Translations under genes and position numbers: made by a program | Source of the DNA: a virus | UHGV virus genome: UHGV-0133741 | Length of the DNA: 64,000 bases | Strand: one strand, 5' to 3' | Shown: positions 44,839 to 48,600 of the stretch, piece after piece | Layout of the letters: the number at the start of each line of letters is the position of its first letter | Numbering within the stretch: the first letter of the stretch is position 1 | The notes under the pieces: generated by a model | The model's input: only the letters and a program-made list of their open reading frames with translations | Told to the model about the DNA's origin: nothing | Databases searched by the model: none

Positions 44839-44912
44839 AGTCAGCCTGCCAGAAATAGATGATGGTGATTCTACTGCTAGTCATTTGTTGATTATTTAAC
44901 TCAATAAAAGAA

Positions 44913-44929
44913 AATTATTAGTGCAATTT
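44913..44929 (-). promoter_or_regulatory. C1 operator-like site in the divergent intergenic region
   Basis: Reverse complement reads AATTGCACTAATAATTT. Confidence 0.35.
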
Positions 44930-44984: not shown

Positions 44985-45230
44985 TTGGCAGAACGTGTTG
45001 ATGATGCAGAGCTGAGCATGAATCAGTTAGAAGCTCTCAAAGACATGGCCATCGATAACATCAGAAAGCAGGCACAGGTCGTGAGCCAGGTATTTACAGG
45101 GAAGTGTCGTTACTGCAATGAACCGATTGAATCAGGCATCTATTGTGACGCTGAGTGTGCGCAATGGCACAGGGAAGAGCAGGCCGCAAAACAGCGTAAA
45201 TATGGCATGCGACCGGCAGGATTTGACTGA
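44985..45230 (+). CDS. small zinc-ribbon protein
   Basis: 81 aa with CRYC...C..C pattern. Confidence 0.35.
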   Translation: MAERVDDAELSMNQLEALKDMAIDNIRKQAQVVSQVFTGKCRYCNEPIESGIYCDAECAQWHREEQAAKQRKYGMRPAGFD

Positions 45231-45232
45231 TT

Positions 45233-45811
45233 GTGTTGCGCTTTACTGAGCAAGAGTATCTGGCTTTCAGTAAGCGCAGGAAGAAAGGATGGGCTAAGCC
45301 AAAGCCCAAAAAGGATCCGTTCTTATCACTTGCCCCGGTAAAAGAAGTTTCGCCACATGCGAAGGCGCTTGCAGCACTGGCAAAAAATCCTGATCTGCGA
45401 GTAGGAAATTGCGAGCACTACGAACAGGTTTTCATTTTTGATTACTTCGAGCGCAATTACCCTGAAATTTATGAGCTGTTGCATGCAACGCCTAACGGAG
45501 GGAAGCGTTCAAAAGCAACCGCCGGGAAAATGAAGGCTGAAGGGCAGAAAAAAGGTTATCCGGACATGAGTCTCGATAAAGCATGCGGTATTTATCACGG
45601 CATGCGAATTGAGCTTAAAGAACCAAATGGTAAAGCCCCGACGAAAGAGCAGATCGCCTGGATGCGCAGGCTTAGAGAGGAAGGTTACTACGTCGTTCTT
45701 GCGTATGGTGCAGAACAAGCGATAACCGCCATCCTGGAATACATAAGCCTTAAAAAGGGTGAGGCTATTGAGCATGTATTGAACGGCGACAAGTGGTTGC
45801 ATGCTGCTTAA
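45233..45811 (+). CDS. VRR-NUC domain nuclease-like protein
   Basis: 192 aa; ...CEHYEQVFIFDYFE...TPNGGKRS...GYPDMSL...IELKEP... pattern. Confidence 0.5.
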   Translation: MLRFTEQEYLAFSKRRKKGWAKPKPKKDPFLSLAPVKEVSPHAKALAALAKNPDLRVGNCEHYEQVFIFDYFERNYPEIYELLHATPNGGKRSKATAGKMKAEGQKKGYPDMSLDKACGIYHGMRIELKEPNGKAPTKEQIAWMRRLREEGYYVVLAYGAEQAITAILEYISLKKGEAIEHVLNGDKWLHAA

Positions 45812-46004
45812 AATAATAAATTAATTAGTGCATATGTGCTCTTTGATATAGCGCACATTAACATCGGGAGAATAATCGTGTCATTCAAGGCTAATTATGA
45901 ATCGCTGGCATCGATCATGCCGCGTAATGAACAGGAAGCAGATGCTGTAGTGGACCCGGTAATCGCTGAAATGAATGCTCGCCTGGAGGCTGAATTTGCA
46001 GCTG

Positions 46005-46637
46005 AGAATGAACATACCACCCAGGGCGACTAGGACTGTTTTTTGTGTCGGTAGCGGTCCGTCACTCACTCGTGAGGACTGTGCTGCTATAGAAAAAACT
46101 GGCTGTTCAATCATCGCGGTTAACAATTCCTGGCAGATGTTCGATGACATTTATGCCTTATACGCCGGTGATTTGTCATGGTGGAAGCAATACGGATCCA
46201 CCATACCGGGAGGGAGATTCCGCAAAGTGACAGCCAACCTGGCGGCGGCGAAATCATTTTCGTTGGAGTACAGGCGATATTGTGGACCGGCTGAAGGGGT
46301 TAATAGCGGCGCGCAGGCTATCAGTCTGGCGGCTGAATCAGGGGCTGAAGTAGTTGTATTAGTCGGCTATGACTGTTCTCTGCAAAACGGCCTTCATTGG
46401 CATGGAGCACACCCTCAAGCACTACGGAATCCAACGCAGGTATCTATTTCAAAATGGCAACAGCAGTTCCTGGATACCCGCAAAAAACACGCAGATTTAC
46501 ATATTTTGAATGCAAGTAGGAGCAGTGCAATTCAATGTTTCCCAAGAATAAATTTAGAGGCAGTGATCGCGTTATTATCGTCGGCAGTGGCCCAAGCGCC
46601 GCAAACTTTGTTGCGCCGCGCGGAGTGCCGATTATAG
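46005..46637 (+). CDS. Rossmann-like protein, paralogue 1 (GSGPS motif family)
   Basis: Track ORF 45975-46637; ...VFCVGSGPSLT...CSIIAVNNSWQ...; paralogous to the next ORF. Confidence 0.4.
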   Translation, partial: RMNIPPRATRTVFCVGSGPSLTREDCAAIEKTGCSIIAVNNSWQMFDDIYALYAGDLSWWKQYGSTIPGGRFRKVTANLAAAKSFSLEYRRYCGPAEGVNSGAQAISLAAESGAEVVVLVGYDCSLQNGLHWHGAHPQALRNPTQVSISKWQQQFLDTRKKHADLHILNASRSSAIQCFPRINLEAVIALLSSAVAQAPQTLLRRAECRL

Positions 46638-47161
46638 CGGTCAATGGGGCCATCGACTGGCTTAACCGCGCTTCTTATTTTTTCACACTTGATCCATCGC
46701 CAGACAATATGCGGCGCGTTGGTCGTGGCCGCCGTCGCCGTGGTGTTTGTTATTGCATGGCACTACCCGATGTTAAAGAACGTGAAGTCAGAGATGGCGT
46801 TCTGTGCTTCCGTCGTGTGGCTGAACGCGGCACGGAGCCAAAAAATACGAATTCTCCCGAGTGGTGGGCGTGGCGCTGGTCCGCACATTTCGGCCTTTGC
46901 GAAGATGAGAATGAAATTGCCAGCGGCAATAGTGCATATGGTGCTCTGAACCTGGCTTTCCATATCGGATTCAAACATGTAGCCCTGGTGGGCGTTGACG
47001 CTACGCAAGAAGCACGCGTTCACTCCGGCGGCACGCCAAAAAATCTAAGTCACCTGCCTTTGTTATTCCAGTCTGCGCGTGAACAGATTGACGTTGTTTC
47101 ATGCGGGAAAATGGGAGGTATTCCGCAGATGACTCTTAAAGAATGGCTGAAGAATACATGA
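46535..47161 (+). CDS. Rossmann-like protein, paralogue 2 (GSGPS motif family)
   Basis: 208 aa; ...[12 protein letters not shown]...[12 protein letters not shown]...; annotated 5' end overlaps the previous ORF by ~100 nt, so the real start may lie downstream. Confidence 0.4.
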
Positions 47162-47835
47162 TGGCACCCACAATTTATCACCGTATCGACGGTACCAAAT
47201 ACAGAAATGTCTGGGTTGTTGGTGATCTGCATGGTTGCTACACCAGACTGATGTCCGAACTCCATCGTGTGGATTTTGACCCGGCGCAGGATTTACTGAT
47301 ATCGGTCGGCGACCTTATCGATCGCGGTACTGAAAATGTCGAATGTCTGGAACTATTGCAGATGCCTTGGTTCAGGGCAGTGATGGGGAACCATGAGCGG
47401 TTGATGCTCGATGCGTTAAGTCCTGATGGCAACGTGAATAACTGGCTAATGAATGGCGGTCAATGGTTCTTCATGCTGGACGCTGATCAGGAAATATTAG
47501 CCAGGGCGCTGGTGGAGTTGGTAAGACGACTGCCCTATATCATTGAGTTGAACACCGGGCAAGAAACTATCGTTATAGCCCATGCCGACTATCCGGATAA
47601 TGAATATCAATTCGGTAAGGAGGTGCCGCTTTTCAACGTTGTCTGGGCGCGCGAGCGTATCAGTGATTCGATGGATGATATTGGTGGCGAAATTTCGGGC
47701 GCAGATCGTTTTATCTTTGGTCACACTCCGGTGAAAAGCCCGAAGACATTCTGGAATCAGCATTATATCGACACTGGTGCCGTATTTTGCGGAAACCTGA
47801 CATTGATGAAAGTGAAAGGTGATGGTGCAGCATGA
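47143..47835 (+). CDS. ppp: Ser/Thr protein phosphatase (lambda-PPase-like metallophosphatase)
   Basis: 230 aa; GDLHGC, GDLIDRG and GNHE motifs. Confidence 0.75.
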
Positions 47836-48533
47836 AGATTGCTTTAGTTCTTCGCTCTGGTGGTGACTATAACGCTTCCGATGTGCAGTGGCTGGTTAAT
47901 CAACTGCCAAAAGGCTATGAAATTATTTGCCTGACAGACCTGAAGCGTTTACATGTACCTGGTGTCAAAGTTGTCCCATTGATCAACCAGTGGCAAAAGT
48001 GCCGTGGCTGGTGGGCGAAAATCGAGTTGTTCCGACCGGATATAACCGATGATCTGTTCTATCTGGATTTGGACACGGTTATTGCCGGTGATATACGCCC
48101 AATCCTTGAGAATCCACCAAGCAGCTTCACCATGCTTAGGGATTTTTACCATCCACAATATCGTGGTAGCGGTGCACTGTGGATACCAAATAGTGTAAAA
48201 GCGCATATCTGGAGTGCATTCTGGCAAGATCCGGAAGGTTGGATTTCTCGTTGTGTCACTACTGAGTGCTGGGGTGATCAGGGGTTCTTACGGAAGGTTA
48301 TGGGCGATGATACACCAGCATTTCAGGATCTGTATCCAGGATGGTTTGTAAGTTACAAGGCCGATGTTGTGGAACCTGGTTCAAAATATGCGAGCGCGCG
48401 TTACTCCAGGGGGAATGGGGCATTACCAAAGGACTGCCGAATAATTTTTTTCCACGGCAAACCGCGACCTCGCGAAGTGTCAGAGGATTGGCTTCCCCTT
48501 ATCAGCTCGTTTTTTGAGCAAGAATCAGAATAA
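47832..48533 (+). CDS. hypothetical protein with DXD-like motif (possible glycosyltransferase-like)
   Basis: 233 aa; ...[13 protein letters not shown]... Confidence 0.35.
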
Positions 48534-48534
48534 T

Positions 48535-48600
48535 ATTGCTCTAATAATTCCATATTTTTAAAGCGTGATGTACACTCATCACGTTTTTTATTAGAGCAAT
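48535..48600. promoter_or_regulatory. pair of inverted C1 operator-like sites flanking a terminator-like palindrome (Op86-like)
   Basis: ATTGCTCTAATAATTCC ... GCGTGATGTACACTCATCACGTTTTTT ... TTATTAGAGCAAT. Confidence 0.5.

Follow-up and report, generated by a model that had tools for sequence, protein, structure and literature searches.

Phage P1 is among the most used phages in genetics, and one block of its genome is still labelled 'putative morphogenetic function'. What do the genes of this block do, and which of them work together? The question is raised here by UHGV virus genome UHGV-0133741, of which a stretch of 64,000 nucleotides (the window) was analysed. Between positions 44900 and 48600 the window is 97.3% identical to P1 and 96.7% identical to P7; judged by sequence, it belongs to a P1-like phage (Punavirus). 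The genes at 45233-45811, 45975-46637 and 46535-47161 correspond to P1 pmgM, pmgO and pmgP, and are followed by ppp and pmgQ. A preliminary description of the window had grouped pmgM, described as a VRR-NUC nuclease gene, with the GSGPS-motif genes pmgO and pmgP and with two glycosyltransferase-like genes (pmgQ and the more distant dbn), as a possible toolkit for modifying nucleic acids or the envelope. A literature search found no paper assigning a function to pmgO, pmgP, pmgQ or dbn. The analysis presented here finds that pmgO, pmgP and pmgQ, with or without dbn, are inherited, and sometimes fused, as one unit. That this unit is a mobile phage-borne cassette which builds a glycan, with the donor, heteromer and acceptor proposed below, is given a probability of roughly 40%. 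The genes themselves were already annotated; the conserved, fusion-linked cassette and its position next to capsid genes appear to be new.

The gene pmgO (45975-46637, plus strand) encodes 220 amino acids as called, and pmgP (46535-47161, plus strand) encodes 208. Pairwise BLASTP aligns only the N-terminal GSGPS...IIAVN stretch of the two proteins (14/36 identical, E 0.003), and in PHROGs they fall in different families with weak cross-matches. Homologues were gathered for each (51 for PmgO, 328 for PmgP), aligned as A1 and A2, and compared profile to profile with hhalign, the fusion protein P0051 being left out of A1. The two family profiles align nearly end to end, over 164 columns (E 5e-12, probability 97.5%). 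The structural models of PmgO and PmgP have identical fold neighbours in identical order. Both families have the same motifs in the same order: G-P-S, (I)-A-V-N, an invariant Asp (D66 in PmgO, D53 in PmgP), N-S-G/A, G-x-D (its Asp is D133 in PmgO and D155 in PmgP) and, downstream, an invariant His (H141/H143 in PmgO, H173 in PmgP). On this profile evidence PmgO and PmgP are true, if distant, paralogues that go back to an ancient duplication and not to a recent tandem event in P1. They had been described as 'clearly paralogous' products of a tandem duplication. The paralogy is borne out by the full-length homology and the common fold neighbours, but was overstated for a pair whose direct alignment covers 36 residues, 14 of them identical; the duplication holds only as a very old one, since the two families are already distinct yet paired in Alpha-, Beta- and Gammaproteobacteria and in Bacteroidota.

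Comparison of the models with solved structures places both proteins in the fold of the Maf central domain and MptE. The Maf flagellin glycosyltransferase 5mu5 is the best match (14.0 and 13.3 for the pair), with the archaeal MptE pyrophosphokinase 8sd5 (11.5 and 12.5) and the Campylobacter sialyltransferase Cst-I 2p56 (10.9 and 10.6) also among the neighbours; GT42 and GT29 sialyltransferases are both represented. The viral structure library BFVD returned uncharacterised or DUF115 matches only. Against Pfam PF01973 (DUF115/MptE-like), PmgO and PmgP score 23.4 and 21.0 bits (cut-off 34.6) and match only the last 35 or so positions of the model. Each of the 54 members of the PmgP family likewise matches the MptE-like Pfam family below its cut-off, at E<=1 (8.6e-7 for the strongest). 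The early guess of a DUF115/MptE-like, sialyltransferase-like protein thus holds for fold and superfamily. The database name 'alpha-2,3-sialyltransferase' should be read as describing a fold and not a demonstrated activity. Searched against the PDB, the PmgO profile finds Cst-II and Cst-I at E 0.26-1.3, collinear and sub-significant, and the PmgP profile has no Cst match. In PmgO and PmgP, the order G-P-S, A-V-N, N-S-G/A, G-x-D and then the invariant His may be that of the catalytic and CMP-binding residues of Cst-II. As modelled, PmgO and PmgP are minimal versions, of about 200 residues, of a core common to Maf, GT42 and (weakly, at the level of motifs) WaaZ; PmgO is thus a predicted stand-alone core of Maf/GT42 type. 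The characterised glycosyltransferases with this core use ulosonic acids activated by cytidine monophosphate (CMP) as donors.

Several observations concern the boundaries of the pair. Homologues of PmgO begin at about 46008, and the ATG there is probably the true start of pmgO; pmgN (45878-46033) overlaps this probable start. The start of pmgP overlaps the 3' end of pmgO by 103 nucleotides in the -1 frame. The overlap contains a heptamer of the canonical -1 slippery type, A AAT TTA (46550-46556, read in the frame of pmgO); a slip there would enter pmgP and give a fusion of about 395 amino acids similar to the natural fusion P0051. A programmed frameshift was considered and rejected: the heptamer is not conserved at that position in the relatives from Pantoea, Citrobacter and EP_H11, such a heptamer has an estimated chance of about 7% of occurring in 34 codons, and pmgP has its own AGGAG and ATG. 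The heptamer is probably fortuitous. Residues 59-70 of PmgP (46709-46744) form a strongly basic loop which is partly conserved in the family and could bind membrane, phosphate or nucleic acid.

The third core gene of the cassette is pmgQ (47832-48533, plus strand). Taken singly, neither PmgQ nor a Pseudomonas homologue has a Pfam match at E<=1. A profile built from 15 homologues matches the PDB entries Gat1 6mw5 (E 1.8e-7), glycogenin-1 (E 3.8e-7) and the GT8 protein 5gvv (E 1.6e-3), and the GT8 alignment extends through the FHGkPRPW region. Invariant in the family are D79-x-D81, G148-D149 (the GDQG motif) and H208...P213 (FHGxPRP). PmgQ is accordingly classed by sequence as a GT8-type, retaining GT-A glycosyltransferase. 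The enzymes that it matches best, namely Gat1 (which acts on Skp1), glycogenin and 5gvv of GT8, extend protein-linked glycans.

The optional fourth member, dbn (39043-40041, plus strand), lies directly after ban and encodes a putative GT4-like (GT-B) glycosyltransferase. It is annotated in P1 as 'possible glycosyltransferase', and its product is named 'glycosyltransferase family 4 protein' in RefSeq. Dbn itself has only weak NCBIfam matches (E 0.019). A homologue in E. coli phage EP_H11, 48% identical, matches Pfam Glycos_transf_1 at E 2e-5 (24.5 bits, cut-off 26.4). In P1, dbn is kept apart from pmgO-pmgP-pmgQ by the tail/baseplate operon; in EP_H11 the order is pmgO-pmgP-dbn-pmgQ, contiguous without gaps, so that the homologue stands between the pmgP-like and pmgQ-like genes. 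Dbn-like genes are also found near the cassette in Serratia and Buttiauxella. The EP_H11 arrangement and these nearby genes tie P1 dbn to the cassette.

The unit recurs widely. Among 19 diverse loci surveyed by tblastn, a PmgP-like gene adjoins a PmgQ-like gene in nearly all, and a PmgO-like gene is adjacent or within about 5 kb in most. Hosts in the survey include Citrobacter, Serratia, Pantoea, Pseudescherichia, Zhongshania, Commensalibacter, Methylophilaceae, Brevundimonas and Sinomicrobium. The pattern is repeated in prophages of Pseudomonas and Alloalcanivorax and in the GenBank phages EP_H11, IME392, XacN1, CM1 and RAS14. The cassette also recurs in Citrobacter phiNP, in jumbo phages of Xanthomonas, Stenotrophomonas and Klebsiella and in many prophages, and PmgO-like genes are present in D3-like phages of Pseudomonas. 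The phages and prophages concerned are those of Proteobacteria and Bacteroidota; every named host is Gram-negative. A search of 1.8 billion representatives gave 247 PmgP-family clusters (50% identity) at E<=1e-10. A PmgP profile scan of viral contigs returned near-identical P1-like contigs only, and the diversity described here comes from genome contigs, exact-protein look-ups and GenBank phages.

Independent natural fusions join the same proteins in several ways: PmgO-PmgP (P0051), PmgP-PmgQ (P0179 and P0243), PmgQ-PmgP (P0265), PmgQ-PmgP-methyltransferase (P0229), methyltransferase-PmgP (P0260) and TylF-type O-methyltransferase-PmgQ (ORF373 of phage XacN1). S-adenosylmethionine-dependent or FkbM methyltransferases are often found among the cassette genes. 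Adjacency, the EP_H11 gene order and the fusions thus support the link that the preliminary description drew between the GSGPS genes and the transferase-like genes pmgQ and dbn. A second type of cassette consists of a PmgO-like gene, a PAJU2-gp11-like protein with a weak GT9 hint and a methyltransferase; it was seen in D3, PAJU2, a Hafnia prophage and the jumbo phage Eowyn (PmgO-like gene at 4998-5570 of locus L115). In several phages an extra protein of about 190 amino acids, with weak similarity to Nucleotid_trans (PF03407), follows or accompanies the cassette (L102 10254-10835, L005 11757-12335 and L111 10210-10740). It is absent from P1 and is probably an additional GT-A-type transferase.

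The position of the cassette gives an indication of when it acts, and on what. In the HK97-like prophages of Zhongshania (L096) and Pseudomonas (L102), the full cassette lies between the major capsid and head-tail connector genes, and the PmgO-like orf7 of D3 occupies the same slot. The PmgO-like genes of PAJU2 and of locus L113 lie among head-tail adaptor genes, with a collagen-like protein close by in L113. The cassette of lambdoid prophages stands at the start of the late operon, flanked by lysis and terminase genes. In P1 it is placed among morphogenetic genes behind an annotated late promoter. Gene context therefore favours a protein, probably a virion protein, as acceptor somewhat more than it favours the envelope.

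Two of these genes deserve comment as annotated. In D3 (L116 5691-6409, orf6.5/orf7) the PmgO-like match runs from 5855 to 6388 in one frame, that of orf7, while the annotated start is at 5951; the start of orf7 appears to have been placed too far downstream, with loss of the N-terminal G-P-S motif region. The PmgO-like ORF010 of PAJU2 (L114 7774-8343) is deposited as 'structural protein', as are the capsid protein and ORF015. This label may reflect detection in virions.

In chromosomal islands, pmgO-, pmgP- and pmgQ-like genes are interleaved with genes for Big_1 (invasin/intimin-type Ig-like) surface proteins. Such islands are found in Pseudescherichia-like Enterobacteriaceae (L091 2235-16419, the layout being repeated in L090 and L092-L094) and in Serratia plymuthica (L004 10001-17785). 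One of the Big_1 proteins is an inverse autotransporter of 1178 amino acids encoded directly upstream of a pmgO-like gene; several others are small and have no obvious signal peptide on inspection. It is possible that the island Big_1 proteins are protein substrates. Big_1 was also considered as the common acceptor and rejected: a jackhmmer profile built from the inverse autotransporter found domains only in the L004 and L090-L094 islands.

From the homology, folds, co-occurrence, fusions and gene positions described above we infer a donor, a heteromer, an acceptor and a biological role. PmgO and PmgP would act together, probably as a heteromer, and transfer a CMP-activated ulosonic acid. To our knowledge, CMP-Kdo (Kdo, 3-deoxy-D-manno-oct-2-ulosonic acid) is the only donor of this kind in E. 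coli K-12. There the transferred sugar would be Kdo from the CMP-Kdo pool of the host; Maf enzymes expressed in E. coli O-glycosylate Ser/Thr using CMP-Kdo (PMC11339370). PmgQ (GT8, DxD, retaining) and Dbn (GT4-like) would then add hexoses from uridine diphosphate-sugars, and many relatives have a sugar O-methyltransferase that would complete the glycan as a cap. As acceptor we propose a protein made during lytic growth, the first choice being surface-exposed Ser/Thr of virion proteins of the capsid or tail. The outcome would be decoration of the particle, not its construction. In sum, the proposal at the probability given above is a late-acting glycosylation cassette in which PmgO/PmgP supply ulosonic-acid transfer and PmgQ/Dbn hexoses, and whose acceptor is a lytic-cycle protein, most likely of the virion. 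Its wider form, a widespread and unrecognised protein-glycosylation system of Gram-negative phages in which a heteromeric or fused PmgO/PmgP pair and a GT8 enzyme (with optional GT4 and O-methyltransferase additions) would draw on the CMP-Kdo and UDP-sugars of the host to put a short Kdo-containing, sometimes methylated glycan on capsid or tail proteins, is less likely and is offered as a speculation.

The genetics of P1 are in keeping with the proposal that the particle is decorated. Deletions, in frame, are available for pmgM, N, O, P and Q, dbn and ppp, and the genes that proved essential were limited to pmgA, B, C, G and R (PMC9024508). By CRISPR interference (CRISPRi), pmgO, pmgP, pmgQ and ppp are likewise non-essential, and pmgN is essential by CRISPRi but non-essential by deletion (PMC10695390). 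This discrepancy may come from a polar or overlap effect on downstream genes.

Other facts weigh against late protein glycosylation by the cassette. The similarity of PmgO and PmgP to Cst-I/II and WaaZ is sub-significant by sequence, and both proteins are without the N- and C-terminal domains of Maf. The fold also holds pyrophosphokinases (MptE and thiamine pyrophosphokinase), so that the transferase chemistry is an extrapolation. Where the carrier is a lytic or a jumbo phage, the cassette is found in regions of early type or of DNA metabolism. Glycosylation of the P1 virion is unreported, and the P1 virion proteome paper mentions none. The virion proteins of the carrier phages are unrelated, and it is not evident which acceptor they would share; the jackhmmer profile found no Big_1 domain in the P1 window, nor in any other phage locus on which it was run.

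The cassette could act instead on lipopolysaccharide (LPS). It would then add Kdo and hexoses to the inner or outer core of the host in the manner of WaaZ, and the P1 receptor would be masked or removed on infected cells and debris; the effect would be superinfection exclusion, or a smaller loss of progeny on debris. WaaZ adds Kdo III and truncates the outer core, and P1 adsorbs to the LPS core, its receptor being the terminal core glucose. The waa locus has the same enzyme classes (WaaZ-like, GT8 and GT4), all hosts are Gram-negative, and dispensability in the laboratory is compatible with such a role. The N-terminus of PmgP matches NCBIfam WaaZ_KDO_III (TIGR04437) at E 0.08, a precomputed Pfam WaaZ_KDO_III match in the PmgO-PmgP fusion is graded 'faint', and K-12 WaaZ has the motif order SGP(S/T)...IIAVNG...GxD...N(C/L)S that is common to both family profiles. 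However, the PmgP match is far under the cut-off (12.3 bits against 200), PmgO has no match to this NCBIfam family, and K-12 WaaZ scores 11.6 and 12.7 bits against the two profiles; the similarity to WaaZ is no better than that to Cst or Maf. The PmgQ profile does match WaaJ (23 bits), but is closer to glycogenin and Gat1 (33 bits). A specific tie to WaaZ or to the GT8 enzymes of LPS was pursued by direct comparison with K-12 WaaZ, WaaJ and WaaO and was dropped, the scores being weak throughout. In temperate phages the cassette is found within the late structural operon or at its start, and the P1 copy is repressed by C1; such timing is the opposite of classical lysogenic conversion and would leave little time to alter the LPS of the outer membrane. 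Remodelling of the LPS core is, on this balance, less likely than protein glycosylation, and is its main rival.

Less probable still is that PmgO and PmgP are pyrophosphokinases of the MptE or thiamine pyrophosphokinase type, or nucleotide binders, acting on a small molecule, or that one partner is non-catalytic. The fold would allow it, but Maf is the best match and GT42 and GT29 sialyltransferases are among the others. The constant partners are glycosyltransferases (GT8, GT4-like and Nucleotid_trans-like) and sugar-type O-methyltransferases, and for several of them a fusion with PmgP exists; this pattern points to the assembly of a glycan and not to cofactor metabolism.

The remaining alternative involves the nuclease. 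PmgM (pmgM, 45233-45811, plus strand, 192 amino acids) reaches 21.1 bits against Pfam VRR_NUC (PF08774; cut-off 23.8, E 3.3e-4) and matches only the C-terminal half of the model, so that by Pfam alone it is sub-threshold. A phmmer search of solved structures matches the VRR-NUC protein 4qbl at E 5.7e-17, with alignment of the catalytic region (GYPDMSLD...RIELK in PmgM, GYPDLIID...RIEIK in 4qbl), and PHROG 5702 'Holliday junction resolvase' is matched at 4.4e-27. The VRR-NUC assignment of the preliminary description is thereby confirmed, and PmgM is probably a Holliday-junction or branch-resolving nuclease. It resembles the stand-alone viral and bacterial VRR-NUC resolvases of the 4qbl type in this D...E-x-K catalytic region, and differs from them by an additional lysine-rich N-terminal stretch of about 75 residues in which no family was detected. 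In the 19-locus survey pmgM-like genes adjoin the transferase cassette in P1-like genomes only; PmgM is for this reason treated as a separate, unrelated neighbour and not as part of the cassette, and its inclusion in a toolkit with the transferases does not hold. The gene is not needed for plaque formation (PMC10695390). That the nuclease and the transferases cooperate in nucleic-acid modification or repair, for example in DNA glycosylation, is highly improbable: it would fit the adjacency in P1-like genomes and a Sinomicrobium phage-like contig with the cassette among DNA-metabolism genes, but pmgM-like genes are not beside the cassette in any non-P1 locus of the survey, and genes for hydroxymethyl-pyrimidines or for another base modification are likewise missing there. 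The methyltransferases linked to the cassette belong to the TylF, FkbM or generic small-molecule types and are not DNA methyltransferases, and of the known enzymes that PmgO and PmgP match by fold, none acts on DNA bases.

The block from pmgL to pmgQ sits between the tail/baseplate genes and pmgR, and its boundaries are marked by operators of the C1 repressor. A scan of the window for C1 operators with at most three mismatches gave 13 matches, against 0.34 expected by chance. One (P1 O26/Op82, 44911-44927, minus strand, two mismatches to the consensus) lies in the divergent promoter region upstream of pmgL. A pair (P1 OpmgRa/OpmgRb, 48535-48551 on the plus strand and 48584-48600 on the minus strand) opens the next operon, that of pmgR. 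The operators at 44911-44927 and 48535-48600 bracket the pmgL-pmgQ transcription block, and no convincing intrinsic terminator was found inside it. Upstream of pmgL the P1 annotation has the late promoter LPpmgL together with C1-controlled sigma-70 promoters. The term 'early region' used for this part of the window is therefore only partly apt: C1-repressed sigma-70 promoters are present, alongside an annotated late promoter and with tail/baseplate genes on one side.

Within the block, pmgL (44985-45230, 81 amino acids) encodes a protein with a zinc-ribbon-like C-terminal CxxC...CxxxC and a weak treble-clef match in Pfam (E 0.047); pmgL and pmgM are found together in P1-like genomes. The spacer between pmgM and pmgN (45786-45834) contains a sigma-70-like, promoter-like site, the 'PpmgN' of P1 (45786-45814, plus strand, 9/12 matches), and the C1 operator annotated in P1 as Oppp/Op83 (45818-45834, minus strand), the position of which was transferred from P1 by coordinate offset. 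The Oppp 17-mer has four mismatches to the operator consensus and hence lies outside the three-mismatch scan. The open reading frame pmgN (45878-46033, plus strand) is annotated in P1 and would encode 51 amino acids. Directly downstream of the GSGPS pair, as had been noted, is a phosphatase gene: ppp (47143-47835, plus strand) encodes a Ser/Thr protein phosphatase like lambda NinI (Pfam Metallophos, E 1e-15). It lies between pmgP and pmgQ in P1-like phages only, and is absent from the cassette in every non-P1 locus examined. Elsewhere in the window, positions 12001-14000 have a G+C content of 0.364, against about 0.47 in the rest, and may be a foreign insertion or a distinct module.

Read as a cassette, four orphan genes become one testable unit. 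If the acceptor is a virion protein, the glycosylation of phage particles would be extended from mycobacteriophages to Gram-negative phages, with a bearing on the stability and adsorption of particles and on their recognition by the immune system in phage therapy. Classic P1 particles would then be glycosylated, and would offer a case of Kdo that is O-linked to a natural substrate protein. The proposal, if true, would also provide very small Maf-type enzymes for glyco-engineering in E. coli. An LPS acceptor, on the other hand, would mean a lytic-phase mechanism of receptor masking.

Among known systems, the glycosylation of mycobacteriophage virions is close in setting: glycosyltransferase and methyltransferase genes of the phage reportedly O-glycosylate capsid and tail-tube subunits. 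Common features are multiple phage-borne glycosyltransferases, often an O-methyltransferase, dispensability for plaque formation, and a position beside structural genes in several carriers. The mycobacteriophage system differs in its actinobacterial hosts, and we know of no Maf/GT42-type enzyme in it. The GT42 enzymes Cst-I and Cst-II of Campylobacter jejuni, to which the sequence similarity of PmgO is non-significant (E 0.26-1.3), act on lipooligosaccharide with CMP-N-acetylneuraminic acid, a donor that E. coli K-12 is not known to produce. In the LPS core of E. coli K-12, Kdo III is transferred by WaaZ (CAZy GT73), which was compared by sequence and has the motifs SGP-S/T, IIAVNG, G-x-D and N-x-S in common with PmgO and PmgP; its donor CMP-Kdo is available in every cassette host. 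It differs in being a single chromosomal gene of the waa operon, and the scores obtained lie far below the cut-off of its family. Maf genes are encoded with flagellin and nonulosonic-acid biosynthesis genes; in the annotated neighbourhoods of the cassette no flagellin, flagellar or nonulosonic-acid biosynthesis genes were seen. The Maf enzymes (for example those of Magnetospirillum, 5mu5, and Clostridium botulinum) have three domains, the 5mu5 chain being 632 residues long, whereas PmgO and PmgP consist of the bare core of about 200 residues, form a paralogous pair or a fusion, and are carried by phages together with a GT8 partner.

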